Positions 22,696 to 59,960 of a stretch of DNA of 64,000 nucleotides are shown in pieces. This stretch comes from Candidatus Zixiibacteriota bacterium. Lineage in GTDB: Bacteria > Electryoneota > B3-LCP. Position numbers and translations under genes: made by a program. Within the stretch, counting starts at the first letter, position 1, and every line of letters begins with the position of its first letter. The notes beneath the pieces are model-generated. The model worked only from the letters and a program-made list of their open reading frames with translations. It searched no databases and was not told the DNA's origin. The stretch is from positions 48,837 to 112,836 of the forward strand of contig QZKQ01000033.1 of the NCBI GenBank assembly GCA_003599535.1, in the 5' to 3' direction.

Positions 22696-22700
22696 CCGAT

Positions 22701-22731
22701 AGCTGAGAGCCGACAGCCGAGAGCCGAGAGC
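22701..22731 (+). repeat. (AGCCGAG)n heptamer tract, right inverted arm of the four-helix-bundle cassette
   Basis: agctgag agccgac agccgag agccgag agc. Pairs with 22208-22256 with about 3 mismatches in 28 nt. Confidence 0.85.
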
Positions 22732-25442: not shown

Positions 25443-25529
25443 GTAGGTTGGGTTAGCGAAGCGTAACCCAACAATTTGTTAAAGTGACCGCGGTGTTGGG
25501 TTACGCCCTGGCGGGCTAACCCAACCTAC
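25443..25529. repeat. 87-nt two-tier perfect hairpin
   Basis: Outer stem GTAGGTTGGGTTAGC/GCTAACCCAACCTAC (15 bp). Inner stem GTAACCCAACA/TGTTGGGTTAC (11 bp). 5/10-nt internal loop containing GCGAAGC. 20-nt apical loop. Confidence 0.9.
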
Positions 25530-36172: not shown

Positions 36173-36598
36173 GCAAGAATCCAGAAGCCAGAATACAGGA
36201 GCCAGGAGGTCCGGAGGGTGGGATAGGCATTCTTGCCTGTCGGAGGGCAATCCGTCTCCTGACGGATCGTGGCCAACACCCCGAAGGGGTGATCTTTTTG
36301 TAGCCGTAGGTTTCAACCTACGGAGAGGATCAGCCTCCTCCCCTTCTCGACCCCGTAGGGGTCGAACCATGTAATCCGCGTAACCTGCTAAATCGTTGAA
36401 AATCTGCGATTCTGACGGGGAGAGGAAGCGACCCCCGCCGCCAGGAATCGCCACTTAAGGGCGGGCTTAAGTCCCACTTCGCTCCAATCCTGGCGGCAAC
36501 GTGAAGCACCCGGCACACTCTGGATCCCATGGTTCGCTGGGAGGACATCGCCGAGAACCGAGAGCCGAGAGCCAACAGCCAAGCGCCAACAGCCATAC
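36173..36598 (+). repeat. modular hairpin-rich intergenic mosaic, copy D
   Basis: Same module order as copy C: heptamers AATCCAGAAGCCAGAATACAGGAGCCAGGAG, GATCGTGGCC module, CACCCCGAAGGGGTG, CCGTAGGTTTCAACCTACGG, GACCCCGTAGGGGTC, ATCTGCGATTCTGAC (36402-36416), GCCGCCAGGA/TCCTGGCGGC (36437-36497), (AGCCRAS)n 36556-36594. Confidence 0.85.
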
Positions 36599-38573: not shown

Positions 38574-38852
38574 GATTAGCCACAGATTGCACAGATAAAA
38601 GCTATTTCTCGCAAAGACGCAAATACATCTCCACGCAAAGGGCGCAAAGAAGGGGTTAGGGGTCGGGGGGGATTAGAGGTTGGGAGATAGCGCGTAGAGG
38701 CGGGGCTTGCCCCCGCCCGGTTGGGGATCAGAGTGTAAGGCGGACTAAACGGCAGAGCACCAACCTCTCCCTGCCACTATCCTCGATCCGCCGCGCAGTC
38801 CGCCGGGTACTGGCGTAGGGTTGCGTAGAGGCCCGGAAATAGTTTTCCACCC
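38574..38852. repeat. intergenic mosaic, copy E (variant module set)
   Basis: Heptamer-like words CCACAGATTGCACAGATAAAAGC..CGCAAAGACGCAAAT..GGGGTTAGGGGTCGGGGGGG. GGCGGGGCTTGCCCCCGCC hairpin. GGCGGACT..AGTCCGCC stem (38739-38804), homologous in inverted orientation to 41400-41467. Confidence 0.7.
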
Positions 38853-39623
38853 ATGAATACCCAACAGAGCATCGCCTACACCCTGGGCGCCACCCCGGAA
38901 GTCATGCCCTACCTGGGGCGGCTCCTGGCGGACCTGCAGGCGCTGGGATCGTCTCCCAGCCTGATCGTGGATCTGCTCCGCCCCCTGGGCCTGCCCCCGG
39001 ACAGCCGCGTCCTGGACCTGGGGTGCGGCAAGGGCGCTGTGGCCCTGGAAATCGCCCAGAGGCTGGGCTTTCAGGTAGAGGGAGTGGACGGCTTCAGGCC
39101 GTTCATTCAGGCGGCGCGGCGGCGGGCCAAGCGGTTGAGGCTGTCCGGTCTCTGCCGGTTTGAATGCGCCGACCTGCGGGACGTGTTCCGCCGGCCGGAA
39201 ACATACGACGTGATCGTCCTGGCCGCCATCGGGCCGGTGCTGGGGGACATGGCGCAGACCGTGGGGACGCTGCGGCAGAGAGTGCGTCCCGGCGGGTACC
39301 TGGTGCTGGATGACGGCTTCCTGGATCCGGGCGAAGGCACCGTACCGGACAGCTACACGGCCTATCTTCCCTACCGGGAAACGGTAGCACAGATGACTTC
39401 CTTCGGCGACCGGGTGATCCACGAACGGATCTTTTCGCCGGACGAGATCCGCGCCACCAACGCCGCGATATACGCGAAAATCCGCCGCCGCGCCGCGAGC
39501 ATCATCCGCCGCCACCCGGCAGCGGCAGAGGCCATCCAGGAATACCTCCGCGGCCAGGAAGATGAGAACCTGGCCCTGGAAACCCGGGTGCGGTCGGCGC
39601 TGTGGGTGGTGAAAATAAAGTAA
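38853..39623 (+). CDS. class I SAM-dependent methyltransferase
   Basis: Motif I VLDLGCGKGAVALEIA, motif post-I ..GVD.., motif II ..YDVIVLAA... Confidence 0.8.
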   Translation: MNTQQSIAYTLGATPEVMPYLGRLLADLQALGSSPSLIVDLLRPLGLPPDSRVLDLGCGKGAVALEIAQRLGFQVEGVDGFRPFIQAARRRAKRLRLSGLCRFECADLRDVFRRPETYDVIVLAAIGPVLGDMAQTVGTLRQRVRPGGYLVLDDGFLDPGEGTVPDSYTAYLPYRETVAQMTSFGDRVIHERIFSPDEIRATNAAIYAKIRRRAASIIRRHPAAAEAIQEYLRGQEDENLALETRVRSALWVVKIK

Positions 39624-39935
39624 AGACCCTCACCTCCGTTTTAGCGTTGTCAGAATCGCAGATGGAACGGAGGGAACGGATGTTGGTCCACCCCTTCAGG
39701 GTGGCACAGGAGGGTGGGGTATCCTTCTCCGGGGGTTACCACGCAGTGGTCCCTTCGGGAAAACACCCCGGCTACTAAAAGACCACCCTTCCAGGGTGAA
39801 GGCCACGATCCTTCGGTAGACAGATGGCCTTCCCAATCTCCTGGCTCCTGACTCCTATTCTTGTGCCTTTTGTATTCTTTTCTTCGTTCATCTGTGTCCA
39901 TCTGTGTGATCTGTGGCTTCCCAACTCATCCCCTC
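39624..39935 (-). repeat. modular hairpin-rich intergenic mosaic, copy F (inverted); left arm of the inverted pair around the YhaM-like gene
   Basis: The reverse complement of 39649-39788 aligns with 41059-41200 with about 8 differences in 142 nt. Outer end GTCAGAATCGCAGAT (39649-39663). Heptamers CTCCTGGCTCCTGACTCCTATTCTTGTGCC face the gene. Confidence 0.88.
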
Positions 39936-39947
39936 ATGGAGCCTCCC

Positions 39948-40949
39948 ATGTCCTCCGCCCTCACCGACAAATTCCTTCGAGAGCTGGCCGAAAACGAGCG
40001 TTTCGCCGGGTTCGTGGTACTGCGCAGCATCCATGTGCGCCAGAAGAAGGATGGGTCCCCCTTCCTGACCCTCGAATTCGGCGACCGGTCGGGCCGCATG
40101 CCCGGCAAGCTGTGGGATCACGTGGAAGAGTACCGCAAGATCCTGGAACCGGGCAAGATCGTCAAGCTGCTGGGCAGCGTAACCACCTACCAGGATCAGA
40201 AGGAGATCCAGATCGAGCGGCTGCGGCTGACCACGCCCGAAGATCCCGTGGACCGTTCCCGCCTGATTGCCGTCAGCGAACGCCCGGTCGAGGAGATGCG
40301 CCGCCACCTGCGCCGGTTGATCGAAGCGGTGGTTCAGCCCGGGTTACGCTCCTTCCTGCGCCGCTTCTTTGACGACCCCGCCATCGCCGGCCCCTGGCTG
40401 GAAGCGCCCGCCGGAAAGCTCTGGCACCACTGCTACCTGGGCGGCCTGGCCGAACATTCCCTGAATATGGCGGAAATCCTGCTGAAGGTGGCGGAACTGT
40501 ACCCCCACGCGGATAAGGACCTGCTCATCGCCGGCGCCCTGCTGCACGACGTGGGCAAAATCGAGGAGCTGTCCTGGGACACGGACATTGACTACACCGA
40601 TCGCGGCCGGCTGGTGGGGCACATCGTTCTGGGGCAGGAAATCCTGCTGCGCCACCGCCAGGACGGCGAAATGCCGGAAGAGACCTGGAACTGCCTCCTG
40701 CACCTGCTGCTGGCCCACCAGGGCAACGGCGAACAGGGGTCGCCGGTGAAGCCGCAGACCCTGGAAGCCATCCTGCTGTACTACGCCGACGAAATGGATT
40801 CCAAGGCCAACGCCTTCAACCGCATCATCCAGCGCGCGCGGGAACAGGGCGACCGCTGGTCGGAATATATCAAGCTGATGGAACGCTTCCTGTACGCCGG
40901 ATCAAAGCCGCAGGAGGGGGGGGAGGTCAAGGAAGGGGATCTGTTTTAG
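39948..40949 (+). CDS. YhaM-like 3'-5' exoribonuclease (OB-fold + HD domain)
   Basis: N-terminal OB-fold (..VVLRSIHVRQKKDGSPFLTLEFGDRSGRMPGKLWD..) and HD domain (..LLHDVGKIEE.., ..LLAHQGNGE..). ATG 39948 has GGAG 6 nt upstream. ATG 39936 is an alternative. Confidence 0.8.
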   Translation: MSSALTDKFLRELAENERFAGFVVLRSIHVRQKKDGSPFLTLEFGDRSGRMPGKLWDHVEEYRKILEPGKIVKLLGSVTTYQDQKEIQIERLRLTTPEDPVDRSRLIAVSERPVEEMRRHLRRLIEAVVQPGLRSFLRRFFDDPAIAGPWLEAPAGKLWHHCYLGGLAEHSLNMAEILLKVAELYPHADKDLLIAGALLHDVGKIEELSWDTDIDYTDRGRLVGHIVLGQEILLRHRQDGEMPEETWNCLLHLLLAHQGNGEQGSPVKPQTLEAILLYYADEMDSKANAFNRIIQRAREQGDRWSEYIKLMERFLYAGSKPQEGGEVKEGDLF

Positions 40950-41608
40950 CCACGGAAATAGAATTCAGAAGCCAGAATTCAGAAGCCAGAAGAAGAATAC
41001 AGGAGCCAGGCGTCAGGAGCCAGGAGCCGGGAGTCAGGAGCCAGAATATCACCCCGCAGGGGTGGTCTTTTAGTAGCCGGGGCGTTTTCCCGAAGGGACC
41101 ACTGCGTGGTAACCCCCGGAGAACGGATTCCCCACCCTCCTGTGCCACCCTGAAGGGGTGGACCATAATCCCCTCCCTCCGTTCTATCTGCGATTCTGAC
41201 CATGAGATTGCTTCGGCCGCTGAAAAAACGCGGCCTCGCAATGACACTGCCGGGCGATGGGCGGAGATTGCTTCGGCCGCTGAAAACCGCGGGCCTCGCA
41301 ATGACACTGCCGGGCGATGGGCGGAGATTGCTTCGGCCGCTGAAAACCGCGGGCCTCGCAATGACACTGTTAGTTAAGCATCAAGCGTCAAGAACCCCCG
41401 GCGGACTGCGCGGCGGGTTAATGAATTGAGCGAAGGATGGGTTCGGCGCTCCGCCGCTTAGTCCGCCCTACAACACTCCCCACATGAAGGTGGCGCAAGC
41501 GTCCCCGCTTGCGATTGTTTCCACCGGCAGAGACGCCGGCGCTATCCTCTTTTACTTATTACTTATTACTTTATACTTCTTTTATCTCTGACTTCAAAGG
41601 AGCTTTTC
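40950..41608 (+). repeat. modular hairpin-rich intergenic mosaic, copy G; right arm of the inverted pair around the YhaM-like gene
   Basis: 12-unit heptamer tract 40961-41044; arm 41059-41200 ending ATCTGCGATTCTGAC; tandem 60-mers 41204-41369; GGCGGACT..AGTCCGCC stem 41400-41467; CGCAAGCG-TCCC-CGCTTGCG 41494-41513; TACTTAT-type heptamers 41550-41590. Confidence 0.88.
41204..41369 (+). repeat. tandem direct repeat, 60-nt unit x 2.8
   Basis: Units 41204-41263, 41264-41323 and 41324-41369 of GAGATTGCTTCGGCCGCTGAAAACCGCGGGCCTCGCAATGACACTGCCGGGCGATGGGCG. Units 2 and 3 are identical. Unit 1 differs in the AAAAAACGCGG loop. Each unit carries an ATTGC..GGCCGC/GCGGCC..GCAAT hairpin. Confidence 0.92.
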
Positions 41609-42658
41609 ATGGATCTGATCTCAACTTTACGCACCCTGAGCCAGGCCTTCGGGCCGCCGGGGTTCGAAGACGAGGTCCGCGCGCTGGTGCGCGACGCCGC
41701 CCAACCGTTGGCCGACCGCCTGGACGAGGACGCCCTGGGCAACCTGACTGCCTGGCGCGACGGCGCCTCGGACAAAATCGTCATGCTGGACGCCCACACC
41801 GACGAGGTGGGACTGATCGTTTCCCATGTCAGCGACAAGGGCTTCCTGCGCTTCGCGCCGCTGGGCGGCTGGGACGGGCGGCTCTTCCCCGGGTCGCGCG
41901 TCACCCTGAAGGGCAAGGACGGCTACGTGCCCGCGGTGGTGGGTTTCCCGCCGCCGCACATCACCACGCCGGAACAACGCAGCAAGGCGCTGCCGCCCGA
42001 AGAGCTGTTCCTGGACGCCGGCATCACCAACCGCGATCAGGCCGCTGAACTGGGTCTGGGGCCGGGCACGCCGGGAGTGCTGGACGGTCCCTTCCACACG
42101 CTGCCGGGCAACCTCATCCTGGGCAAGGCCTTCGACGACCGGTGCGGCTGCGCCGCCGCCCTGAATATCCTGGAAACCCTGCAGGGGAAGGATCTCCCCT
42201 TCACCCTGGCGGTGAATTTCGCCACGGGCGAAGAGCTGGGCCTGCGCGGAGCCAAGGTAGCCGGATACCGCATCGCACCGCAGGTGGCCCTGGTGCTGGA
42301 AACCACCACCGCGGGCGACTTCCCCGGAGTGGCCGAACACCAGTCTCCCTGCCGCATGGGCGGAGGCGTGGCCGTAACCGTGGCCGATCGTACCATGGTG
42401 ACTTCGCCGCGCATGGTGCGCTTCCTGCAGGAAACGGCCCAGGAAGCGGGCCTCCCCTACCAGTTGAAGCAGCCGTTGTTCGGCGGCACCAATGCGGGGG
42501 AAATCCACCTGTCGCGATCCGGGGTGCTGACCGGCGTGCTGGCGGTGCCGGCACGCTACATCCACAGTCCCTCCTCCATCCTGGACACGAACGACTTGGA
42601 CGCCATGATCCGCCTGGCCCTGGCGGCGCTGGAAAGAATGCCGGGGAAGTTGATCTGA
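41609..42658 (+). CDS. M42-family metallopeptidase (glutamyl aminopeptidase/FrvX-like)
   Basis: ..FGPPGFEDEV.., ..MLDAHTDEVGL.., ..GKAFDDRCGC.., ..EELGLRGA... Confidence 0.88.
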   Translation: MDLISTLRTLSQAFGPPGFEDEVRALVRDAAQPLADRLDEDALGNLTAWRDGASDKIVMLDAHTDEVGLIVSHVSDKGFLRFAPLGGWDGRLFPGSRVTLKGKDGYVPAVVGFPPPHITTPEQRSKALPPEELFLDAGITNRDQAAELGLGPGTPGVLDGPFHTLPGNLILGKAFDDRCGCAAALNILETLQGKDLPFTLAVNFATGEELGLRGAKVAGYRIAPQVALVLETTTAGDFPGVAEHQSPCRMGGGVAVTVADRTMVTSPRMVRFLQETAQEAGLPYQLKQPLFGGTNAGEIHLSRSGVLTGVLAVPARYIHSPSSILDTNDLDAMIRLALAALERMPGKLI

Positions 42659-43417: not shown

Positions 43418-45346
43418 CTACTTGATTAGTACCATCTTCCAACTGAGCGTCTGTCCTGCCGTCTGCAGGCGGTAGAGGTACATTCCTGAAGCCAATCCCG
43501 ACCCGTCGAAGGTTGCCCGGTGAGTCCCCGCTTCCCGCCAGCCGTCCACCAGGGTGGCAACTTCCCGCCCGGCGGTATCGTAAACCTTCAGGCTGACGCG
43601 GCTGAAGGCGGTAAGCTGATAACGGATCGCCGTCGCGGGATTGAAGGGATTGGGGTGGTTGCCCATTAAGGAGGTCGCCTGGCGTAAGGCCGTTCCCGGC
43701 AGCTCGAAGCTCCGGCTGACCTCCCCGTCGGACAGGGTAGCGATGACCGGGCCGCCGGTTCCGTCTCCCGCTGTCGCCGATTTTTCAAAGGTGAAGCTGT
43801 CGAAGCTTTCAATTCCCATGGGGTGTTCGCCCACATAGGCCGTGACGGTGTAGGTTCCGGCCATGGCCGTGCCGGGCAGAGTTAACCCCAGCACGCGAGC
43901 CAGGGTACCGCCGGCCGGCAGGTACAGGTCTTCCCGCAGCACCATGGGAACGACCTGGCTGTCGGGCTGCTGCAGGGTGTACCAGGCGTCGTACAGGTTG
44001 AAGTAGTCGGGGGAGTTGGTGATGGCCAGGCCGAATTCCACCGTGCCTCCGGCGGGCGGCAGGACGATGGGGCTGCCGAACGGCGTCAGGCTGATGGTGC
44101 AGGTGCCCTGCGGCTGGTTCTGGTCGAAGTAGTGGGCGCCCACGTCGGCGAGGGTGCTGTCGGGGTCCGGCGAAGCCAGGGGGCTGCCGGTGTCAATGCA
44201 GGGGCTGTAGGGCATCAGGTTGAAATTGATCCCGCCGACGAAACAGGGGTTGGCGTCGAAATTCCCCGCCCCCGGATACATACCCTCCACGTCGCTGTAG
44301 GTCAGGACCAGGCTGCTGCCGGTTTCGACGTAGATCCCGAAGATGTTGTTGCGCAGGATGTTGTTGCGTCCGAAGGGATGGGAATTCTGCCACACCCGCA
44401 ACCCGTGGGCCCCGTTCCACATAATGGTACAGTTGTCAATCAACGGAGAGCTCTGGTTGTAGCAACTGACGGCCACGTTACCGTTCAGGCAGAGTTCCGC
44501 GTACATCACTTCGGGACTGGAGAAGTTCCGGCAGTAGAGTCCTGAGCCGGACATTCCGACAGACATGTTCTCGCTGATGGCGCCGTAGTGGATTGCGGGC
44601 GAACTGTGATCCAGCAGAATTCCTCCTCCGTTGGCGGTCTCGGCGGCATTGTGGTGAATGAAGTTGTTCTCGAACAGGCCGTGGGTGTAGGTGCAGTGAA
44701 TGCCGCCGCCGTTATCCGCCCGGTTGTTCCAGATGATGTTGTCATGCAGGTAGGGGTTGGCGCAATCGTCCAGGAACAGGCCGCCGCCGTCGCTTTCGCA
44801 GAAGTTCTGGGTGATGACGCAATGGTCAATTTCCGCGTTGCACTTGCGCAGGTAAACACCCCCGCCCTTGACGTCGGCGTTATTCTGTTTGATGGTGCAA
44901 TAGCGCAAAACCAGCATGCAACTGTCGGCGTGGATGCCGCCGCCGCGGCTGTCCGGCTGACCGACGGTGCCCTGGGCGTGGCCCCGTTCGATGGTGCAGT
45001 AGACCAGCTCGGAGGTACCCTGTGATTGCAGGAAGCGGAGCCCCGCCCAGGAGCCGGCCGAGCCGACGGCGTAGGACATCAGGATCATCTCCTGCTCGGT
45101 GCCCAACGCCCTCAGGACGCCGTGCACCAGAAAGCGGTAGTGGCCGGTGAAGCACACCTCCACGCCCGGCTGAATGACCAGGCTGTCACCGGCGGGCACG
45201 TCAATGTCCGACACCACCAGGTAGGGCGACCCGGCGGCGGTCCAGGCGCCGGTGACGACGCCGGAAACGATGGTATCTGCGCGTAGCGCCGGCACGGTCA
45301 GGATCAGGATCGCCAGCACAGCGCAACCGAAGCGTAGTCTTTTCAT
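43418..45346 (-). CDS. secreted right-handed parallel beta-helix repeat protein with T9SS C-terminal sorting domain
   Basis: Signal peptide MKRLRFGCAVLAILILTVPALRA. PbH1-type repeats (..GGGIHA.., ..GGGVYL.., ..GGGLFL.., ..GGGIHC..). CTD ..HPNPFNPATAIRYQL..VSLKVYDTAGREVATL..SGMYLYRLQ..KMVLIK. Start ATG at 45346. Confidence 0.8.
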   Translation of the reverse strand: MKRLRFGCAVLAILILTVPALRADTIVSGVVTGAWTAAGSPYLVVSDIDVPAGDSLVIQPGVEVCFTGHYRFLVHGVLRALGTEQEMILMSYAVGSAGSWAGLRFLQSQGTSELVYCTIERGHAQGTVGQPDSRGGGIHADSCMLVLRYCTIKQNNADVKGGGVYLRKCNAEIDHCVITQNFCESDGGGLFLDDCANPYLHDNIIWNNRADNGGGIHCTYTHGLFENNFIHHNAAETANGGGILLDHSSPAIHYGAISENMSVGMSGSGLYCRNFSSPEVMYAELCLNGNVAVSCYNQSSPLIDNCTIMWNGAHGLRVWQNSHPFGRNNILRNNIFGIYVETGSSLVLTYSDVEGMYPGAGNFDANPCFVGGINFNLMPYSPCIDTGSPLASPDPDSTLADVGAHYFDQNQPQGTCTISLTPFGSPIVLPPAGGTVEFGLAITNSPDYFNLYDAWYTLQQPDSQVVPMVLREDLYLPAGGTLARVLGLTLPGTAMAGTYTVTAYVGEHPMGIESFDSFTFEKSATAGDGTGGPVIATLSDGEVSRSFELPGTALRQATSLMGNHPNPFNPATAIRYQLTAFSRVSLKVYDTAGREVATLVDGWREAGTHRATFDGSGLASGMYLYRLQTAGQTLSWKMVLIK

Positions 45347-45476
45347 GGTACGTCCTTTGGATGGGAGAGCGGCGCAGATCCGGGGGCCGGAGTGCGCAAA
45401 ACGGGCGAAGAGGCGGACCGGATGATCCGCCCCTTCGGTTACTACCACACCATGGCGAGGGGCATGGAATCGCAGG

Positions 45477-47411
45477 TTACTTCATCAGGGTCATCTTGCC
45501 GACGGAGCGGACCTCGCCCGCCTGCAACACGTACAGGTACAGTCCCGAGGCCAAACCGGAGGCGTCGAAGGTGACTTCGTGCGAACCGGCCGCCCGCCAG
45601 CCGTCCACCAGGTCCGCCACCTGCCGCCCCTGCAGATCATAGACTGCCAGGCGCACCGGGGCGGCCTGGGCCAGGTCGAAGGCGATGGTGGTGGTGGGAT
45701 TGAACGGATCAGGGTAGTTGCCCTTCAAGGCGGTCGCCTGGGGCAGGGCCGTTCCCGGCAGCTCGAAGGTCTCGCTGACTTCGCCGTCGGACAGGGTGAC
45801 CGTGGCCGGACCTTCGGGGAGACCGTCGGTCGCGGACTTTTCGAACGTGAAGCTGTCGAAGTCCTCGATCACCGTGGGATGCTCGCCCGTGTACGCCGTC
45901 ACGGTGTAGGTTCCGGGCATGGTCGTGGAGGAGAGGGTCAGGCTGAGGGTCCGGGACAGGTTGCCTCCGGCCGGCAGGTACAGGTTGGTCCGCAGCACCA
46001 TGGGGATGATCTGGCCGTCCGGCTGCTGCAGGTTGTACCACCCGTCGAACAGGTTGAAGTAGAGCGGCGAATTCATGATGGACAAGCCGAACCATACCGT
46101 GCCCCCGGTGGGCGGCAGGACGATGGGGCTGCCGAACGGAGTCAGGGTAATGGCGCTGGTGCCCTGCGGCTGGTTCTGGTCGAAGTAGTGGGCGCCCATG
46201 TCGGCGATGGTGCCGTCGGGGTCCAGCGGCGCCTGGGGGCTGCCGGCGTCAATGCAGGGGCTGAAGGGCATCAGGTTGAAGTCGTCGCCGTAGGGGTTCA
46301 CGAAGAATGGCTGGACGTTGATGTTGCCGGCCCCGCTCCAGTAGACTTGGATATTGCTGTAGGTCAGGTAAATGCTGCATCCCGAGCTGACGTAGAAGGC
46401 GTAGCTGTTGCCGGTGATGATGTTGTTCCGGCCGAAAGGATTGGAGCTCAGGTAGGTGCGGATGGCGTAGCTGCCGTTGCCGTGGATGGTGTTATTGTCA
46501 ATGGTGGGAGAACAGTTGTCCCCGCAGTAGATGGCGGTGTAGTTGTTGAAGCAGATCTCGTTGTACATCAACAGGGGGCTGGCGAAATGCTGGCAGTACA
46601 CCCCGGCGCCATAGCTGGAGGAGGCGGTATTATGGTTGATCTTGCAGTTCTGTATCAGCGGCGAGCTGTGGTCCAGGAGAATGCCGCCGCCGTTGCTGGA
46701 AGTGGCGGAATTATAGTTGATCACATTGTCCGACAGCACGCCCCCGGTGTAGACCAGGAATAGGCCACCGCCGTTGTCGGCGCTGTTGGAAGTGATCACG
46801 TTGTCGTGAATGTCGGCGTTGTTGGTGTATTCCACGAACATACCGCCGCCGTCGCCGTTACAGGTGTTGTTAGTGATGAGATTGTCATGAATCGCGCCGG
46901 TGATATTATGGGCGAAGATGGCCCCGCCCTTGGTGTCCGCCTTATTCTGATAGAAACGGCAGTTGTGGATGCTGAGCGCGGCGCTGAGGGCGTGCACTCC
47001 GCCCCCCTTGCTGGAGGTCTGGCCCACCTGGCCCTGGGCGTAACCCCACTCGATCACACAGTAGGCCAATTCACTGGAGCCCACGGTATTTTCGAAGAAC
47101 AAACCCGCCCAGGTGTAGTTGGGGTAGGGAAGGTGGTGCGTGAAACGGATGGAATCCGTAGGGGTGCCGACCGCGGTCATGGGGCCGTGAGCGATGAGCT
47201 TGAACTGGCCGGTGAACTTGACTTCCACGCCGGGCTGAATCGTCAGACTCAGGGCCGCGGGAATTTCCACGTCCGCCAGCACCACGTAGGGCGATCCGGC
47301 GGTGGTCCAGGTGCCGCTGACCTGGCCGGCGACGTAGGTGTCGCACAGGGCCGGTTGCGTCCAGAAGGACAACAGGATCAACAGGCTGCCAAGGGGAATG
47401 AGTCGCTTCAT
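45477..47411 (-). CDS. secreted parallel beta-helix repeat protein with T9SS CTD (tandem paralog of 43418-45346)
   Basis: Signal peptide MKRLIPLGSLLILLSFWTQPALC. Collinear with its neighbour along the full length. CTD ..YPDPFNPTTTIAFDL..LAVYDLQGRQVADL..SGLYLYVLQ..KMTLMK. Start ATG at 47411. Confidence 0.8.
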   Translation of the reverse strand: MKRLIPLGSLLILLSFWTQPALCDTYVAGQVSGTWTTAGSPYVVLADVEIPAALSLTIQPGVEVKFTGQFKLIAHGPMTAVGTPTDSIRFTHHLPYPNYTWAGLFFENTVGSSELAYCVIEWGYAQGQVGQTSSKGGGVHALSAALSIHNCRFYQNKADTKGGAIFAHNITGAIHDNLITNNTCNGDGGGMFVEYTNNADIHDNVITSNSADNGGGLFLVYTGGVLSDNVINYNSATSSNGGGILLDHSSPLIQNCKINHNTASSSYGAGVYCQHFASPLLMYNEICFNNYTAIYCGDNCSPTIDNNTIHGNGSYAIRTYLSSNPFGRNNIITGNSYAFYVSSGCSIYLTYSNIQVYWSGAGNINVQPFFVNPYGDDFNLMPFSPCIDAGSPQAPLDPDGTIADMGAHYFDQNQPQGTSAITLTPFGSPIVLPPTGGTVWFGLSIMNSPLYFNLFDGWYNLQQPDGQIIPMVLRTNLYLPAGGNLSRTLSLTLSSTTMPGTYTVTAYTGEHPTVIEDFDSFTFEKSATDGLPEGPATVTLSDGEVSETFELPGTALPQATALKGNYPDPFNPTTTIAFDLAQAAPVRLAVYDLQGRQVADLVDGWRAAGSHEVTFDASGLASGLYLYVLQAGEVRSVGKMTLMK

Positions 47412-47560
47412 GATTGCTCCTCCGATGAGGGTAAGAACTGGATTGAGGGATTCTTTAGTGATCAAGCGAAAACCAGTGGAGGAATAGCATCTCATGCAGC
47501 CATAATGATCGTGGATTACACAATGCTTCCGTCGTAAGCACCGCCGAGACTACCGGCCAT

Positions 47561-49837
47561 TCATTTCAGCAGCAGCATCTTGGCGCTGACCCGGCCCAGA
47601 GGGGTAGTCAGGACCGCCAGGTACAGGCCCGAACTCAAGCTGCGGCCGTCGAAAGTCACGCTGATGATTCCCGCCTGGGCGGGTAGGGAAGCAACGGAAA
47701 TCCGCCGCCCGGCCAGATCATAAATTTCCAACTGCGCCTCGCCTCCGGGCGGCAGGGTGATATCCAGCCGGGCTTCCGCGTTGAAGGGGTTGGGCGACAC
47801 CCGCACGCCCCCTTCCCCCGGGACCGGCAGGCGGTCATCCCCGGCTTCCAGTCCCAGGGGAAGGTCCGTGTTCGTCTCCGGCCAAATGTCATCGCTGTGC
47901 CCGGGGCCTGTCTTCTGGAAATAGAGGTAAGCCAGGTCCGTGACCACATTGGGATAGTCCCCCAGCCGGACGTCGAAGCGATAAAATCCGGGCGGAGCGC
48001 CGCCGGGGACCATCTGGGTGAGGGTCACGAGAAAGGAATCCTGGGGACTCAGGGTGCGGTTCTGGCGCAGCAGCAGCGGCCCCACCACCGCTCCGCTGGG
48101 CATCACGACGGAGGTCCAGGCGTCCACCACGGCGGCCGAGGCCAGTTCGTTGCCCAGGGTGACATACATGGGCAGTTCGCCTCCCGAAGACGGCACCTGG
48201 AGCGGAACTGCGGCGGGATCAATGCGGACGAACACTTGGGGCTGGAAATATCCCGCCGAGTTGGCTCCGCCGGGCGTGGGAGCGCCGGCGGCGCCGTTCA
48301 GGTGCCAGTCGCTGCCGTAGCCGGTATCCAGGGATTGGGCGTTGCGGCCGTAGGTCTGCCCCACCCCGGGCTCGGGAAGGGTGAAGCCGGCCACGTGGTT
48401 GCCTCCCCAGGAGAGCGCATCGGTGATGGAGGTGTTGGTCATGGGGGCCGGCGCCGCGGTGTTGATCAGGGCGCACCCGTCCACGTCGTCATGCAGGGTG
48501 AAAAAACCCGCGCCGGTGAGGACCCGGGCGCCGGTGCCGCCCGTGACTTCAAAATCGGGGCGGAGACCGTAGCGGTTGCGGAAGAGGGATCCGTTGTGCG
48601 CCGCGACCAGGTGCTCGAAGGGGCCCAGCCAACTGGAAGGGGGAAACTGCCAGTGCTCCGGCGCTCCCAGCAGCCCGTTGGTGAACTTGTACCCGCCGAG
48701 GTTGAGCCATTGCGCCGTGGGATTGTACACCTCGACCCACTCCGATCCCTGGGTGAGATCCTGGGGAATGATCATGGCTTCGTTGATCAGGGGGACCTGG
48801 GGGTAGGGATGGATATAAGAGAAGGAGGACTGCCCCGGGTGTGAGGCTTCCCAGTCCAGGTATTCGCTGACCACCTCGCGGCACGTGCTGTAGCGGGCGA
48901 TGAGGTTGTTGCGGGGGGTGTAATGCCCCACGAAATTCGCCTCGATAAAATCCATGAAGGTGCTGATCTGTTGCTGGTAGTAGGGACTGAACAGCCAGAG
49001 ATGGGTCAGGAAACCGAAGGTCCAGACCTTGTAATTCAGCGAGTCGCCCTGCATCATCTCCTGAACCAGCCATTCCTGGTAGCACTGGTTCAGCGCCGCC
49101 TCCATGGCCGGCTCGGTGCAGTTGTAACCGTGGGCTTCGGGATTGCCGATCTGGGCGTAGTGGTCAATGTAGATGAAGGGACTGCTTAAATTCTCTTCCA
49201 GCTCGTGGCCCAGCCGGTTGTCGCTGCCCGGACGGAAGGGGTGGCGGATCAGGCGCCCCAGGTAATCCAGGCCCTTTTCCGACCGGTTGCCCGGGCCGGA
49301 CAGGAACCCGAACTGATTCATGAACTGCCCTTCGTCGCTGCACAGGAAGGGGAAGGCGCACATGGTGAGGTTGGAATCCGTCAATTGGTCCACCCAGTAT
49401 GTCGCATCGTTCCAGATCTGCTGGGTCCAGAGGGGATCATAGTTGGGGATACCGTACCGGCCGGTGGAATCCGTCACGTCCAGCCAGTTGAAGGGGCCCT
49501 GGTAGACCACGCTGTGGGCGTGGGTCCCCAACTCGTGGCCGTCGGCTTCCAGATCGCGGAACAGTTGCTGATCGCCGTAGTGCAGCACCCACTCGGCGAA
49601 ACTGCCGTTCATCAGGATGGTCATCTTGAAGGGGAAGGGGCGGCTGGCGGCTTCCTGCCGAAGCCATTGGAGAAAGGCGATGCGCGCCGCGTACCCCGTG
49701 GAATCGGGCGTCACCGGCTCAACGTGGATGATAAAAGCAATGTTGATGGGGGGTTCATACTGTACCGCACGGCCGGGGGAGCAAAGCGCTCCGACACCAG
49801 CCATTAGCAGAATCATCATCAGACTATATCGTCGCAT
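47561..49837 (-). CDS. secreted multidomain T9SS cargo (polysaccharide-deacetylase-like N-domain, lamin-tail domain, Ig-like module, CTD)
   Basis: Signal peptide MRRYSLMMILLMAGVGALCSPGRA. LTD-like ..INEAMIIPQDLTQGSEWVEVYNPTAQWLNLGGYKF... CTD ..VSPNPFNAEARLDITL..LEIYDLAGRRI..SGLYLAVL..KMLLLK. Start ATG at 49837. Confidence 0.72.
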   Translation of the reverse strand: MRRYSLMMILLMAGVGALCSPGRAVQYEPPINIAFIIHVEPVTPDSTGYAARIAFLQWLRQEAASRPFPFKMTILMNGSFAEWVLHYGDQQLFRDLEADGHELGTHAHSVVYQGPFNWLDVTDSTGRYGIPNYDPLWTQQIWNDATYWVDQLTDSNLTMCAFPFLCSDEGQFMNQFGFLSGPGNRSEKGLDYLGRLIRHPFRPGSDNRLGHELEENLSSPFIYIDHYAQIGNPEAHGYNCTEPAMEAALNQCYQEWLVQEMMQGDSLNYKVWTFGFLTHLWLFSPYYQQQISTFMDFIEANFVGHYTPRNNLIARYSTCREVVSEYLDWEASHPGQSSFSYIHPYPQVPLINEAMIIPQDLTQGSEWVEVYNPTAQWLNLGGYKFTNGLLGAPEHWQFPPSSWLGPFEHLVAAHNGSLFRNRYGLRPDFEVTGGTGARVLTGAGFFTLHDDVDGCALINTAAPAPMTNTSITDALSWGGNHVAGFTLPEPGVGQTYGRNAQSLDTGYGSDWHLNGAAGAPTPGGANSAGYFQPQVFVRIDPAAVPLQVPSSGGELPMYVTLGNELASAAVVDAWTSVVMPSGAVVGPLLLRQNRTLSPQDSFLVTLTQMVPGGAPPGFYRFDVRLGDYPNVVTDLAYLYFQKTGPGHSDDIWPETNTDLPLGLEAGDDRLPVPGEGGVRVSPNPFNAEARLDITLPPGGEAQLEIYDLAGRRISVASLPAQAGIISVTFDGRSLSSGLYLAVLTTPLGRVSAKMLLLK

Positions 49838-49969
49838 CCCGTATTTCTCCGGAAAAAAGATGGTGAGGTGTCCATTTGCACGCACCCTCACGCTGCCTGG
49901 TGATACGAAGCGAACCGTGCGGGTGGTATCCCGTGGCGGACTGCGCCCGAGACTCGGTCAGGCGGGGAC

Positions 49970-49999
49970 AATATAGGAAGTTTCCCCCAGGCAAATCAA
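49970..49999 (-). promoter_or_regulatory. sigma70-like promoter for the 47561-49837 gene (TTGATT-18-TATATT on minus strand)
   Basis: The minus strand reads TTGATT tgcctgggggaaacttcc TATATT, with an AT-rich UP-like tract immediately upstream (50000-50100). Confidence 0.4.
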
Positions 50000-50126
50000 G
50001 CGCAATTTTTTGCATATTATGCATTCCGTTGCATTTATATGTGATTATTGAGTTTGTGAATATTATTATTTTATATTTGCTTCATCCGGCGATAAACTCA
50101 CCCATGATATGCCTTTCGTCTGGTAG

Positions 50127-50381
50127 GGCGCTTCAGCCAACGGCGAGACCGTCATCCCCCTGGAGCTGCCGCAACGCTCGCAAGTGAAGATCGAGCTGTT
50201 CAACGTGCGCGGGCAGTCCCTGGGTGTCATTCATGACGGAATCGAAAACGCCGGTTGGCCCAAGATCCGCTACGATGCCTCAGCCCTGTCCTCCGGAGTA
50301 TACTTCTACCGAGTTATGGTGGAAGGGCTAGAGCGCAGCGGCAAGCACCAGAATACCGGAAAAATGCTCTTGCTGAAGTGA
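50127..50381 (+). pseudogene. orphan T9SS C-terminal sorting domain without passenger
   Basis: Frame open only from 50127. Translates ..NGETVIPLELPQRSQVKIELFNVRGQSLGVIHDGIENAGWPKIRYDASALSSGVYFYRVMVEG..GKMLLLK*, a complete CTD. No signal peptide or upstream domain. Preceded by about 25% GC DNA. Confidence 0.7.
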
Positions 50382-50444
50382 GATGACGTGATTATATTGG
50401 GAGGGCGGAGATTTCCCCGCCCTCCCTTCTGCTTGGAGACGACC

Positions 50445-52502
50445 ATGAGATGGCTGATGATACTATTGGGGTTATTGCCGATCCTGGCCACCGCCCAGGA
50501 TTTCACCTTTGAGTTGCAGCCGGAAGCGTTTCCCGTTGAGATAGAGGGCTGGGAACTCTTCCAACCATGGGCAGGCGGCTTGAACACCACCACGCCGGAA
50601 TGTTGCGACCTGGATGGAGATGGCGATCTGGATTATCTCAGTGGTGGTTCTGGTGATTACTACTACGCCTACTTCACAAATATCGGGACGGAAACAGATC
50701 CGGATTTTCAATATCTCACCCACCAACTGGATTCCCTGCGGGCCATGGATGTGGATCTGGTGGATATGGATCATGACGGGGATCAGGATGCGGTCATGAG
50801 TGGCCTATGCTATCGCAACCTGGGCTCATCCAACCAATACAATTTTGCCGCTGTAGCGGATACCCTCTACGACCCTGCCGGCAACCAACTTATCTGCCCA
50901 CGCACCGCGGCGGTGGACATTGATGCCGATGGGGATTATGACATCTTGGCGGGGCAGATGAATGGCACCCTGCGCTTCTATCAAAATATGGGCTCCCCCG
51001 AAATTTACCTTTTTCAGCGCGGTGTTGGCAATTGGCAGAACATTCAAGTCTGGCCTGATCCCTATCACTACACCGATCCCTGCTTTGCCGATCTGGATGG
51101 CGATGGCGACCTGGACCTGCTGGTGGGGGCGGGGGACGGCACGCTCTCCTACTACCGCAACGACGGCACCCCCCAGAATGCGGCCATGACATTGGTATCC
51201 AGCAGCTACCTGAACCTGGACGTGCAGTTTGACGCCTCGCCGGAACTGGCCGACATCGACTCTGACGGGGATCTGGACTTATTCGTGGGCCGCAGTCCCG
51301 CCGGAGGCCAGGATCGCACCCCGGGCGATGTGTACTTCTTCCGCAATGAAGGTACGACTCAAAACCCCGCTTTCCAGTGGGTCACCACCAACTACCTGAC
51401 CTGGGATAACGGCGCCGAAGCCCGACCCCGGCTGGTGGACATTGACACCGACGGTGATCCTGATCTGTTCTCCCCCATCGGCGGCCGCCTCTTTTTCTAC
51501 CGCAACCAAGGCAGCGCACCATCCCCCCGCTTCGTCTTCGAGACCGACACTTTCCAGAATATCGCGGTCTTTGATAATGAACCCTGGTTTGTGGATCTGG
51601 ACGGGGATGGGGACTACGACCTGTTGGCCGGGGAAAGCGCCTTCCCGCCGCCCGGACCGGGCTTGCACCTGTATCTCAACCAAGGCACGCCCCAGGAACC
51701 AGATTTTGTCCTGTATAGCGATGATCTTCTGCCCGGCTGCTTCAACGATGAAATTGTGCTTAGTCCCTGGACAGCCGATATAGATGCCGATGGAGATCAA
51801 GACCTGTTCGTCAGCACCGGACGATTGTGGTACTTTGAGAATGTCGGCACTTCCGCGCACTTCCGGTTTGAACTGGACAGCAACAACTGGCAGAATATCG
51901 GCGCGCCCAATTACGGGTTGGCCTGGGGCTGCTTCTGGGATATCGATGGGGATCTGGATCTAGATCTGTTCATCAACAGCGAGAATTACGGCTGGTTTCC
52001 CTGGGAGAAGAACCTGACCTTCTACCGCAACACCGGCACGGCGCAGAATGCCGTGATGGTGCTGGAGGACGATGACCTCTTCCCGGAGCTGATGATCTGG
52101 CAGGCAGCGCCCTTTCTCTATGATATGGACTTAGATGGGGATGGGGATCTGTTTGTGGGAGACGAGTGGGGCGGGATCCGTTACTTCGAGAACACCACCG
52201 GGGACACGGCCTACAGCCCCTACACCAAACCCCGCCCGCAGCGGGTGATGGATTTGTCGCTGTCACCCCAACCCGGCAACCCCACCACGGCCATCTCCTT
52301 CCAACTGCCCTACGCTCAGGAGGTGGACTTGGCGGTGTACAATCTCCTGGGGGCAAGGGTGGCGACACTGGCCTCGGGGAGGATGAACGCGGGGAGCTAT
52401 TCCCTGCCGTGGGCCTCCGACGGGTACGCCTCCGGGATCTACTTCGTGCGGCTGACCACCCCCACCGAAACCCTCACCCGGAAGCTGGTGATCCTGCAGT
52501 AA
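50445..52502 (+). CDS. FG-GAP/VCBS repeat protein with T9SS CTD
   Basis: Signal peptide MRWLMILLGLLPILATAQ. At least 10 repeats of D(L/I/M)DGDGD(L/Y/Q)D(L/Y)L-type calcium-binding loops (..DLDGDGDLDLLVGAGDGTLSYYRNDG..). CTD ..PQPGNPTTAISFQLP..VDLAVYNLLGARVATL..SGIYFVRL..KLVILQ. Confidence 0.85.
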   Translation: MRWLMILLGLLPILATAQDFTFELQPEAFPVEIEGWELFQPWAGGLNTTTPECCDLDGDGDLDYLSGGSGDYYYAYFTNIGTETDPDFQYLTHQLDSLRAMDVDLVDMDHDGDQDAVMSGLCYRNLGSSNQYNFAAVADTLYDPAGNQLICPRTAAVDIDADGDYDILAGQMNGTLRFYQNMGSPEIYLFQRGVGNWQNIQVWPDPYHYTDPCFADLDGDGDLDLLVGAGDGTLSYYRNDGTPQNAAMTLVSSSYLNLDVQFDASPELADIDSDGDLDLFVGRSPAGGQDRTPGDVYFFRNEGTTQNPAFQWVTTNYLTWDNGAEARPRLVDIDTDGDPDLFSPIGGRLFFYRNQGSAPSPRFVFETDTFQNIAVFDNEPWFVDLDGDGDYDLLAGESAFPPPGPGLHLYLNQGTPQEPDFVLYSDDLLPGCFNDEIVLSPWTADIDADGDQDLFVSTGRLWYFENVGTSAHFRFELDSNNWQNIGAPNYGLAWGCFWDIDGDLDLDLFINSENYGWFPWEKNLTFYRNTGTAQNAVMVLEDDDLFPELMIWQAAPFLYDMDLDGDGDLFVGDEWGGIRYFENTTGDTAYSPYTKPRPQRVMDLSLSPQPGNPTTAISFQLPYAQEVDLAVYNLLGARVATLASGRMNAGSYSLPWASDGYASGIYFVRLTTPTETLTRKLVILQ

Positions 52503-52618
52503 ACTTCTCTCGCTCGCCCCGTAACTTCCCCCACGAAAAAGCCCCTGAAGGCCCACCATCGCCGGGTGAGATCCGGAGGCCACGCCCGAAATCCGGGAAT
52601 TGCCTGCCTGTACGCGTG

Positions 52619-52671
52619 TGGGCCCAGCAGGATTCGAACCCGCGACCCACGGATTAAAAGTCCGTTGCTCT
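52619..52671 (-). tRNA. 3'-terminal fragment of tRNA-Lys(UUU); 5' acceptor strand and D-arm missing
   Basis: The reverse complement is AGAGCAACGGACTTTTAATCCGTGGGTCGCGGGTTCGAATCCTGCTGGGCCCA. It contains the anticodon arm ACGGA-CTTTTAA-TCCGT, the T-arm GCGGG-TTCGAAT-CCTGC, and the acceptor 3' strand plus discriminator A. Adjacent sequence has no GGGCCCA or GCTC D-stem. Confidence 0.75.
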
Positions 52672-52699
52672 TGTGCGGGAAAAGGGGCAAAATCGGGCG

Positions 52700-52721
52700 T
52701 TTTGCAGTAGTTTTGCAGTAG
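52700..52721 (+). repeat. tandem direct 11-mer TTTTGCAGTAG x2 next to the tRNA fragment
   Basis: ttttgcagtag ttttgcagtag begins 28 nt from the truncated end of the tRNA fragment. Candidate recombinase arm-type sites. Confidence 0.6.
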
Positions 52722-53273
52722 TCGCATGAAAACGGGCCGGACTTGCGTCCGCGTGAGTCCGGTCCGGCCGTTAACGCAACGGTCGCTGGGCCTGCCTGAG
52801 AAATCCCTTGCTCTTTGAAATAGGTTAGCTATCTACACTTTTTCGGCACTATCCTACGCGGGCCGTGCGCCAGGTAGGTATGGCAGCGTTGCGCCGGAAA
52901 ACCGGCAGCAAGCAACTGTGTTTTCGTGAAGGAAGCACTTTCCTGACGGGCGGCGCGGTCGGTGGATGCTGAGCTGGCTTCTCTCATTGAATCAGGCTTC
53001 CCTCGCCCACCTGCTGGGAGAGGTCAACACGTTCCCAGGCTTATAGAGCCTTCCCGACCAGAATGCGCTTGACGCTGCCCCGAAAATATTCTGTCGGGTA
53101 GGGGGGGGTATGTTTCTCCTGAAACCGAAATCCCGAATCCAAGGTGGGGGGCTTTGCCGCCGACGGGAGGTTTTAACTTCGCCCCCTCCCAGAAGCCGGT
53201 CAGGGACGGACTTCAGAATGCTGCCTCAATCAGGAGTGACAAGGGATAAAGATCCAGAAATTGAAGAAATTAC

Positions 53274-53302
53274 TTGACTTTGGGAGAAAGTTGCTCTATA
53301 TT
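53274..53302 (+). promoter_or_regulatory. sigma70-like promoter (TTGACT-17-TATATT)
   Basis: cTTGACTttgggagaaagttgctcTATATTa, 156 nt before ATG 53459. Near-twin of the promoter at 59897-59925. Confidence 0.55.
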
Positions 53303-53458
53303 AGAATTGAGTTCTAACCTGTGGGGGTTAGCGTGCCAGGATCTTCCCAAGCGCTAAGGACATTCCCCTCCCAAAATGGCTGCCCGAAGCCGGAGCGCGG
53401 TGATGCCCCGGAACGGGCGCTTTACGTTTGACCACCCCAAGCTGAAAAGAGACCAACG

Positions 53459-55141: not shown

Positions 55142-55180
55142 ATTTTCCATGAACTACCAATTTAATGAAGAGAGGTCATC

Positions 55181-59785: not shown

Positions 59786-59817
59786 CGCATGAGGCCTTCC
59801 CTGACGGGAGAAATACC

Positions 59818-59847: not shown

Positions 59848-59896
59848 GCGGGTGCTGTCCATCAATAATCAAAATGCCCCGCTCTGATCATTGTTC

Positions 59897-59925: not shown

Positions 59926-59960
59926 ATTTCCGAAACTCCTACCCTGACATGGAGCCTCCC

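Follow-up and report, generated by a model that had tools for sequence, protein, structure and literature searches.

Gene content and position of yhaM

Within the 64-kb stretch of DNA analyzed here (hereafter, the window), a yhaM-like gene on the plus strand (39948–40949) encodes a protein of 333 amino acids, in which an OB fold (PF01336, residues 34–98, E = 2e-8) and an HD domain (PF01966, residues 172–288, E = 1e-15) were identified. This domain pair agrees with the OB/HD nuclease type that the first-pass annotation of the locus had assigned to the gene, and homologues are named 3'-5' exoribonuclease YhaM in their source annotations; judged by domain make-up and homologue names, the product is a predicted YhaM-type 3'-5' exoribonuclease. 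The gene belongs to a conserved array that extends over more than 12 kb in the order MiaB-LapA-LapB-SPOR-rSAM-lyase-yhaM-M42 peptidase. In particular, a beta-eliminating lyase, yhaM, and the M42 peptidase follow one another in seven LCP-89-like relatives at 63–75% amino acid identity (L118, L165, L166, L167, L181, L182, and L183), all of which carry yhaM in the same orientation as the window. Five of these relatives have no intervening gene on either the lyase or the M42 side, and L118 and L165 resemble the window in having an additional gene between lyase and yhaM. The upstream MiaB, LapA, LapB, SPOR, and rSAM genes are annotated in L166, L167, L181, and L182, and the same set is present in the window. 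At the protein level, the nearest relative is only 75% identical, and the GC3 of the gene (0.82) lies within the range of its neighbors (0.80–0.85). Taken together, yhaM is a resident, vertically inherited chromosomal gene.

In the window, this gene is enclosed by two inverted arms 1.25 kb apart, the left arm (copy A, 39649–39799, plus strand) and the right arm (copy B, 41049–41200, minus strand), and the left arm is ~93% identical to the reverse complement of the right over ~151 nt. The inverted-repeat search recovered the pair as two blocks, 39649–39735/41114–41200 and 39725–39799/41049–41123, with one indel between them, and a global alignment gave 141 of 151 identical positions and a longest perfect run of 40 nt. 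Inverted repeats of ~140 nt and ~94% identity around the yhaM-like gene had been reported beforehand, and a blastn comparison of the arms within the window bore them out (92.8% over 152 columns, E = 1e-59); the accompanying figure of ~8 differences in 142 nt was essentially right, although slightly optimistic against the 10 mismatches and one gap found here. The arms are non-coding, because a 1-nt indel between them breaks the frame of the only ORF that they share.

The spacers beside yhaM in the relatives are mostly 22–88 nt long, and a search of these flanking spacers found no arms; likewise, inverted repeats longer than 21 nt flanked yhaM in none of 28 relatives. It had been asked in the first-pass annotation whether orthologous yhaM genes are flanked by the arms, and finding the same gene in place with independently placed, non-inverted repeats had been named there as speaking against arms and gene forming one unit. 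The relatives do keep yhaM in place, either without arms or with unrelated insertions nearby, namely a four-helix-bundle cassette that lies upstream of the gene in L118 and downstream of it in L182.

Architecture of the arms and their repeat family

Both arms begin at their outer ends with exactly the family 15-mer GTCAGAATCGCAGAT, as had been noted from the sequence. In copy A, this terminus is followed by GGAACGGAG-type periodic repeats and then by three plus-strand hairpins, all within 39649–39799: hairpin 1, with the stem CCACCC/GGGTGG and then an AGGAGGG spacer; hairpin 2, whose loop contains a long insert; and hairpin 3, with the stem CACCCT/AGGGTG. Copy A continues through a fourth hairpin (GGCCACGATCC..GATGGCC; 39801–39829, plus strand), in collinearity with copies C and D; copy B carries the same hairpin-2 insert and lacks hairpin 4. 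On the gene-facing side of copy A lies a CTCCTGR heptamer array (39838–39856, plus strand), and three ATCTGTG motifs with a 10-nt spacing can be read just 5' of the yhaM start (39890–39916, plus strand). On the opposite side, arrays that read CTTCTGR/CTCCTGR on the minus strand (40965–41047) begin 15 nt past the yhaM stop codon, and the complementary heptamer arrays described earlier for the inner sides of the arms are indeed present (39838–39856 versus 41008–41049). Copy B also provides a terminator-like site on the plus strand (41048–41066), composed of hairpin 3 and TCTTTT.

These arms are members of a modular extragenic repeat family that is genome-specific. With two or fewer mismatches allowed, the 15-mer occurs at eight sites in the window against 0.05 expected, and six full copies of the mosaic repeat were found in the ~22 spacers of at least 60 nt, two of them in plus and the other four in minus orientation. 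At least six spacers are thus occupied in the 64 kb of genome covered. All six copies sit between plus-strand genes. Their alignment gave a common module order of 15-mer terminus, 9–10-nt periodic repeats, three to four GC-rich hairpins, and heptamer array, with the CTCCTGR array always directed toward the nearest gene. Because single copies stand alone in other spacers of the window, the arm, and not the bracket, is the repeating unit; by simple arithmetic from copy number and orientation, ~0.6 adjacent inverted pairs are expected by chance.

The hairpin stems differ between copies in a compensatory manner. Hairpin 1 occurs as CCACCC/GGGTGG, CAACCC/GGGTTG, and CGACCC/GGGTCG, hairpin 2 as CCGTAGG/CCTACGG versus CCGGGGG/CCCCCGG, and hairpin 3 as CACCCT/AGGGTG in copy A versus CACCCC/GGGGTG in copy B. 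In an RNAalifold analysis of five copies, covariation was limited (six pairs with double changes, covariation term ~0), and the hairpin-2 insert disturbed the alignment.

Further repeats adjoin the arms. Abutting the outer end of copy B, another hairpin repeat (GAGATTGCTTCGGCC..GGCCTCGCAATGACACTG) is present as three 60-nt units in tandem (41204–41383, plus strand), and a related unit abuts copy F (~25291–25398). A second hairpin family contributes a plus-strand copy at 38734–38808 (GTAA-GGCGGACT...) and an inverted partner at 41397–41472 (minus strand, with a GTAG tag in that reading), and this pair brackets a methyltransferase gene together with yhaM. Thus, the bracket formed by the arms is not unique, since an inverted pair from an unrelated hairpin family spans the same region as well.

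No Rfam family matched the arms, either in the whole window at the gathering threshold or in 39550–41650 at E ≤ 1. In genome and metagenome contig collections, from which the source genome is absent, the family pattern CGGCTACWAAARGAYCACCC returned only 20-nt chance matches, as checked by blastn; the inner-module pattern had no matches in the public collections, where the source genome is likewise absent, and an over-specific 26-mer of copy C had none in the genome contig collection. The mosaic family is absent from Rfam, and its diagnostic patterns had no related match in the public collections of genomes and metagenomes covered by these searches.

The bare 15-mer gave mostly chance matches in genome contigs, with a real enrichment in Poribacteria. 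The terminal 15-mer-plus-decamer module was also observed in Poribacteria and Saprospirales, where it may interest researchers of REP/RAYT evolution.

Origin of the inverted pair

Counted per alignment column, copies A and B are 92.8% identical, and every other pair of copies is 51–76% identical; the formal alignment thus upheld the earlier claim that the arms are more alike than either is to other copies (92.8% versus at most 76%). Both also share the insert in the loop of hairpin 2, the core of which (AAGGGACCACTGCGTGG) recurs in a separate hairpin at 20597–20613. Because they share this derived insert and are mutually closest in identity, A and B form a recent copy or gene-conversion pair, in keeping with the recent duplication or gene conversion first suggested for them, and the shared derived variant implies that one was copied from the other or both from a common master. 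We proposed, with a probability of roughly 0.7, that, of all copies of the repeat, A and B are the two most recently related and occupy the spacers on either side of the resident yhaM gene. Their route may have been either a transposition-like spread of non-autonomous DNA in the style of REP/BIME elements or gene conversion between older copies. What mobilizes the repeat is a guess, because no RAYT or other transposase occurs among the 25 window proteins scanned. The repeat would have spread at the DNA level as largely selfish or neutral DNA, and the bracket around yhaM would be a by-product of repeat density and not a mobile unit. For yhaM, a probable role of copy B is that of a 3' stem-loop or terminator, since hairpin 3 and TCTTTT read in the sense direction ~100 nt past the stop codon.

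Gene conversion without any new insertion offers a tentative alternative, which we consider possible but not likely. Both spacers would have held older, diverged copies, and a non-reciprocal tract would have homogenized them from the 15-mer terminus to hairpin 3. This would account for two observations: copy A keeps its collinearity with C and D across hairpin 4 and the heptamers, whereas copy B lacks hairpin 4, and the high A-B identity breaks off precisely where hairpin 3 ends, leaving only part of the canonical element shared. However, the same pattern is explained if B is a partial copy or later lost hairpin 4 through a 29-nt deletion.

It is improbable that the inverted pair, which we read as two recently related repeat copies, is a functional bracket that either flips yhaM reversibly or controls the RNase mRNA through a 146-bp RNA duplex; if this were true, an uncultured phylum of the FCB group would have turned a selfish extragenic repeat into a switch acting on a single gene. 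In the RNA version, a read-through transcript running from upstream of copy A to beyond copy B would fold into a ~146-bp duplex enclosing the yhaM mRNA, with RNase III cutting or message protection as the outcome. The inter-arm duplex is predicted at -310 kcal/mol versus -63 and -57 kcal/mol for the arms alone, 146 arm positions are paired in the predicted minimum free energy structure of the 1.57-kb RNA, and read-through is plausible because all local genes are co-directional with short spacers. Such a prediction, however, is no evidence of function, because any inverted repeat yields such folding; moreover, the local hairpins would form first while the RNA is being transcribed, the terminator-like hairpin of copy B with its T-rich tail (41048–41066) would stop transcripts ~20 nt into the arm, and Rfam contained no match. 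Since none of the 28 relatives has the bracket, it does not qualify as a regulatory design conserved for yhaM, and we regard an RNA device of this kind as improbable.

An invertible segment, in which homologous recombination between the 151-nt arms would flip yhaM out of its co-directional unit and yield a phase-variable RNase, appeared similarly remote. Inverted repeats 1.25 kb apart with 93% identity and a 40-nt perfect run would suit such an exchange, and repeats of this order of length and identity are within the range usable by RecA. Yet the present orientation of yhaM is the ancestral one and is that of the single assembly, no invertase gene occurs among the tested neighbors, and the 7% divergence of the arms argues against frequent exchange, which would homogenize them.

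The composite mobile cassette put forward in the first-pass annotation, in which the arms are terminal inverted repeats and a 1.55-kb arm-yhaM-arm unit transposes or excises with yhaM as cargo, is highly improbable and is largely refuted by synteny: although the inverted arms share 93% identity and have outer ends sharply set at the family terminus, and a small four-helix-bundle gene of foreign, low GC (22306–22695) also lies within inverted heptamer arrays, yhaM keeps its place and orientation in the conserved array of seven relatives and has the GC3 of its neighbors, the 1.55-kb unit is single-copy in the window, repeat copies occur singly elsewhere in it, and arm-specific patterns are without matches in the genome and metagenome collections, from which the source genome is absent. 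No transposase or recombinase Pfam domain was found in the tested genes between 18.9 and 50 kb (25 proteins, part of the window), and none within ~10–20 kb of yhaM. The outer flanks, TTTTAGCGTT before copy A and CATGAGATTG after copy B, share no direct repeat, as had been observed at the outset, and this absence of a target-site duplication is not fully conclusive at the inner ends, which are loosely defined in the repeat copies. The proposal that the unit has the same design as the four-helix-bundle cassette fared no better, since yhaM is fixed in position and native in composition, whereas the four-helix-bundle gene is AT-rich and variably placed.

Several other candidates were also rejected for this region. 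The arms lack the RYYYAAC/GTTRRRY cores of integron attC sites and occur in mixed orientations; they are not a TR/VR pair of a diversity-generating retroelement (DGR), as the differences between A and B show no adenine specificity, an RT is absent, and neither arm is coding; the frame-breaking indel precludes a small ORF in the arms; a sigma-70 promoter had one weak match, no more than in shuffled sequences; and a CsrB-like GGA sponge does not suit the heptamer arrays, the sequence of which varies among relatives.

A mobile yhaM cassette would have been a notable find, but the evidence speaks against one. The locus is a well-delimited case of a repeat-rich genome, from an LCP-89-like uncultured member of the FCB group, that fills its spacers with mosaics of hairpins, periodic decamers, and heptamers, and these spacer mosaics generate long inverted repeats flanking housekeeping genes. 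Such inverted pairs break or mis-join assemblies, can drive inversions, and yield long dsRNA if transcribed.

Comparison with known repeat systems

REP elements often exceed 100 copies per genome, are located mostly between genes that are unidirectional or convergent, and flank their cognate RAYT (Y1 transposase) genes; Y1_Tnp had no match among the 25 window proteins scanned. Hairpins 1–3 of each mosaic copy are short (20–40 bp), GC-rich imperfect palindromes of the REP kind, apart from hairpin 2 of A and B, which is larger because of its loop insert; CCGTAGG-TTTCAA-CCTACGG, at 20451–20470 and 36304–36323, is an example of such a palindrome. Six of six mosaic copies are extragenic, in spacers between unidirectional, plus-strand genes. 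AGTAG or TGTAG stands immediately 5' of hairpin 2 in copies A–D, and hairpins 1, 3, and 4 are untagged; across the window, GTAG tags accompany 6 of 37 perfect intergenic hairpins versus 1.1% expected per hairpin (p ~4e-6). The alternating orientation of BIMEs was not found within an arm, where different palindromes follow in fixed order and one orientation, and an alternating doublet occurs only outside the arms, as an inverted GTAG-REP doublet at 25443–25529. Neither the terminal inverted repeats of MITEs, given GTCAGAATCGCAGAT at one end and hairpin 3/4 with the heptamer array at the other, nor their target-site duplications, given the differing outer flanks, were observed. Taken as a whole, the mosaic is none of the classical types REP, BIME, or MITE, because only one hairpin is GTAG-tagged, the hairpins do not alternate, and the ends are not mutual inverted repeats.

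Among the closest known systems are the GTAG-tagged REPs and BIME mosaics of Di Nocera et al. (2013; PMC3733652) and Nunvar et al. (2010; PMC2817692), and in the former, REP palindromes are described as carrying at one end a GTAG (or CGTC) tag that stays unpaired. Both those elements and the present repeats are extragenic, multicopy, and built from short GC-rich imperfect palindromes, with one hairpin per unit carrying a 5' unpaired GTAG; both lie between unidirectional genes, often just 3' of coding regions, and in both, palindrome families combine into mosaics. The present element differs in being an ordered mosaic of ~150–230 nt with a non-palindromic 15-mer terminus, 9–10-nt periodic repeats, and a heptamer array, in having its hairpins in one direction where those of BIMEs alternate, and in residing in an LCP-89-like FCB-group host, a lineage that is not known to feature in REP surveys. 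It also differs in that no RAYT gene was found among the 25 window proteins scanned.

Pneumococcal BOX (boxA-boxB-boxC), enterobacterial ERIC, and Neisseria Correia elements are modular, non-coding spacer repeats of 100–200 nt that occur in either orientation, can fold as RNA, and affect adjacent genes. The mosaic resembles them as a modular non-coding spacer repeat found in either orientation and has no sequence relationship to them; in addition, the mosaic unit lacks the terminal inverted repeats and target duplications that characterize Correia elements and MITEs. Composite transposons and cassettes flanked by inverted repeats, including the 23S_rRNA_IVP four-helix-bundle cassette of the window, likewise hold one gene within inverted repeats that include heptamer arrays, but the gene of that cassette is AT-rich and changes position between relatives, being found on either side of yhaM, whereas yhaM is native and fixed. 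Cyanobacterial STRR sequences are heptanucleotide tandem repeats limited to intergenic DNA, and the likeness lies in the 7-nt tandem arrays in such DNA, although the unit sequence differs. Here, the heptamer arrays come joined to hairpin mosaics or four-helix-bundle cassettes, and their sequence shifts with genome GC between relatives, from ATTCTGA/CATAACT in L118 to CTCCTGR in the window.

Inverted repeat arms around the yhaM gene

The resident RNase gene yhaM carries a genome-specific mosaic repeat copy in each flanking spacer, and these two copies, which are inverted with respect to one another, are also the most closely related pair. A repeat search of the window returned the inverted arms as 39649-39735/41114-41200 and 39725-39799/41049-41123, which are pieces of one repeat with a single indel between them. 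When positions 39649-39800 were compared with the window by blastn, a reverse-strand match to 41200-41049 was obtained with 92.8% identity across 152 columns (E=1e-59), including 10 mismatches and a single gap, and global alignment of the left arm (copy A, 39649-39799) with the right arm (copy B, 41049-41200) gave 141 identical positions out of 151, the longest perfect run being 40 nt. In both arms, homology starts at the outer G of the 15-mer GTCAGAATCGCAGAT and ends directly past the third hairpin; this 15-mer occurs at eight window sites with at most two mismatches, compared with 0.05 expected. The inner sides carry complementary heptamer arrays (39838-39856 and 41008-41049), and comparison of the outer flanks showed no direct repeat. 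The first-pass annotation, which had described inverted arms at 39649-41200 with the family 15-mer as outer termini, complementary inner heptamers and no obvious target-site duplication, was therefore borne out in these respects. The arms had no Rfam match, and a coding role was rejected because their sole shared ORF is frame-shifted by the single indel.

The arms belong to a modular repeat family with six copies in the window: A (39649, plus strand), B (41200, minus), C (20564, minus), D (36416, minus), E (4774, plus), and F (25221, minus). Alignment showed a fixed module order, consisting of the terminus GTCAGAATCGCAGAT, two to four periodic repeats of 9-10 nt (GGAACGGAT and similar), hairpin 1 with a purine-rich spacer, hairpin 2 followed by TAAAAGA, hairpin 3, an optional hairpin 4 (in A, C, and D, absent in B), and a CTCCTGR heptamer array. 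Stem differences among copies are compensatory, as in hairpin 1 (CCACCC/GGGTGG, CAACCC/GGGTTG, CGACCC/GGGTCG), hairpin 2 (CCGTAGG/CCTACGG versus CCGGGGG/CCCCCGG), and hairpin 3 (CACCCT/AGGGTG in A, CACCCC/GGGGTG in B). Each copy is intergenic, with a plus-strand gene on either side; two copies run in one direction and four in the other, and it is always the heptamer end that points toward the nearer gene. Given six copies and ~22 usable spacers, chance would be expected to yield ~0.6 adjacent inverted pairs; thus, the bracket geometry alone is unremarkable. Inverted copies in adjacent spacers are common in this genome, and an unrelated second hairpin repeat (GGCGGACT...) forms an inverted pair (38734-38808/41397-41472) spanning the same region. 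Searches of genome and metagenome collections with arm-specific patterns returned nothing related.

Several other repeats were observed. Three tandem 60-nt hairpin units, GAGATTGCTTCGGCC...GGCCTCGCAATGACACTG, adjoin copy B (41204-41383) and produce a spurious ORF (41202-41429), and a longer-looped relative adjoins copy F (~25291-25398). The only DNA-level similarity found between window repeats and a relative is the module GGATAGGCATTCTTGCCTGTC around copy D (36210-36250), which is 89% identical over 35 nt to a spacer following the M42 gene in the LCP-89 bacterium B3_LCP (locus L167, 7090-7124). Followed by 10-nt periodic CGGATT-type repeats, GTCAGAATCGCAGAT also makes up complete palindromic units of ~85 nt, GTCAGAATCGCAGATT...AATCCGTGATTCAGAC, in at least 10 Poribacteria MAG loci, one Saprospirales MAG, and one unclassified MAG (loci L055, at 2043-2110 and 3999-4073, L052, L002, L096, L102, and L066). 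In L055, a unit ends 12 nt upstream of an SD and ATG; the unit is a small repeat common to several phyla.

Residence of yhaM and the variable lyase-yhaM slot

The enclosed ORF (39948-40949, 333 aa) has the OB fold (PF01336) and HD domain (PF01966) noted in the first reading, and its homologues are labeled 3'-5' exoribonuclease YhaM; the nearest are only 63-75% identical, and their clade takes in candidate division LCP-89. In seven relatives (L118, L165, L166, L167, L181, L182, and L183), yhaM lies between a beta-eliminating lyase and an M42 peptidase in the same orientation, and the upstream array of MiaB-like rSAM, LapA, LapB, SPOR, and rSAM is shared by the window with L166, L167, L181, and L182. 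Both the 15-mer and CTCCTGR arrays are absent from the yhaM-adjacent spacers of relatives, most of which measure 22-88 nt; a longer one, in L183, holds CACTGATT decamer arrays and hairpins. When 800 nt upstream of yhaM was compared with 800 nt downstream by blastn in 28 relatives, no inverted repeat >21 nt was found. The GC3 of yhaM (0.82) equals that of its neighbours, and no transposase or recombinase domain was detected among the genes tested in the 18.9-50 kb interval. We concluded that yhaM is a resident gene and not cargo, which rules out a composite transposon. The proposal that arms and gene form a composite element moving or inverting as one unit was unsupported given the synteny, the arm-free flanks of yhaM in relatives, and the lack of a transposase domain among the tested genes.

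The lyase-yhaM interval (38574-39623 in the window) varies among relatives and looks like an insertion hot spot: the window has a SAM methyltransferase there, L118 a four-helix-bundle cassette, L165 a 290-aa ORF lacking Pfam matches, and L183 a repeat-filled spacer of 626 nt, and nothing occupies it in L166, L167, and L181. Elsewhere, inverted arrays of the heptamer GCTCTCG (22208-22254 and 22692-22731) enclose a low-GC four-helix-bundle gene, 23S_rRNA_IVP (PF05635; 22306-22695). L118 has an equivalent cassette upstream of yhaM and L182 a decayed one downstream, both with AT-rich heptamers; the cassette looks genuinely mobile, targeting or creating heptamer arrays. The region 43418-62546, in part of lower GC (0.52-0.55 at 54-58 kb), encodes a cluster of very large secreted proteins that have beta-helix/NosD repeats and T9SS C-terminal sorting domains (Por_Secre_tail). 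A tRNA-like fragment (52627-52676, minus strand) was barely above the Rfam threshold, with no ARAGORN call.

Derivation of the arms and their putative RNA

Per alignment column, A and B are 92.8% identical, compared with 51-76% for every other pair, and among copies only these two carry a hairpin-2 loop insert of ~23-30 nt. These features indicate that one was derived from the other, or both from a common master, in agreement with the earlier suggestions that the arms are closer to each other than to copies C and D and may have arisen by recent duplication or gene conversion. Past hairpin 3, A continues collinearly into hairpin 4 like C and D, and B passes directly into the heptamers, a pattern equally compatible with incomplete copying, with deletion at a later time, or with gene conversion over a tract that ends at hairpin 3. 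The insert core AAGGGACCACTGCGTGG otherwise occurs in a different hairpin module beside copy C (20597-20613). That module, GCCGCCAGGAATCGC...GCAATCCTGGCGGC (20567-20625, 36430-36500, 4657-4770, and 18735-18780), is found just outside the 15-mer terminus of C, D, and E, and the identity of its inner core with the A/B insert indicates inter-module recombination.

We proposed that the repeat most likely spreads at the DNA level as a non-autonomous, REP/BIME-like element, or is homogenised by gene conversion, and that repeat density produced the inverted arrangement as a by-product. On the opposite strand, which bears the GTAG tag, hairpin 3 is followed by TCTTTT with a terminator-like score; in copy B this is sense with yhaM, ~100 nt beyond the stop codon, and copy B is a probable 3' stem-loop or terminator of yhaM. 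If both arms were on one RNA, a duplex of ~146 bp is predicted (-310 kcal/mol, versus about -60 for each arm alone); such a modeled duplex is a trivial consequence of the repeat and provides no argument for a function. Homologous recombination would be a mechanistically possible route to inversion.

Comparison with REP and BIME elements

A MITE was ruled out because single copies have no terminal inverted repeats and no target duplication was seen. Read on the opposite strand, copies A-D have an unpaired GTAG directly before hairpin 2 (AGTAG preceding CCGTAGG... or CCGGGG...). Across the whole window, the tag was found on 6 of 37 perfect intergenic hairpins, where 1.1% of hairpins would be expected to carry it (p about 4e-6, with copies only partly independent), and GTAG-GTTGGGTTA palindromes form an inverted, head-out doublet at 25443-25529. 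An identical GTGG-tagged hairpin, CGCAAGCGTCCCCGCTTGCG, was observed in two spacers (18709-18728 and 41494-41513), the latter with a T-rich tail and terminator-like score, though upstream of the M42 peptidase gene. GTAG-tagged short extragenic palindromes are the signature of the REP superfamily, and RAYT transposases are thought to mobilise them (PMC3733652, PMC2817692). The closest known kind is therefore GTAG-tagged REPs combined into BIME-like mosaics, with which the repeat shares short palindromes, the GTAG tag, and extragenic location; unlike a BIME, it lacks alternating REP orientation. We therefore label it REP/BIME-like and not a proven member. The repeat is an extragenic palindromic mosaic of an already known kind, in a poorly studied host phylum.
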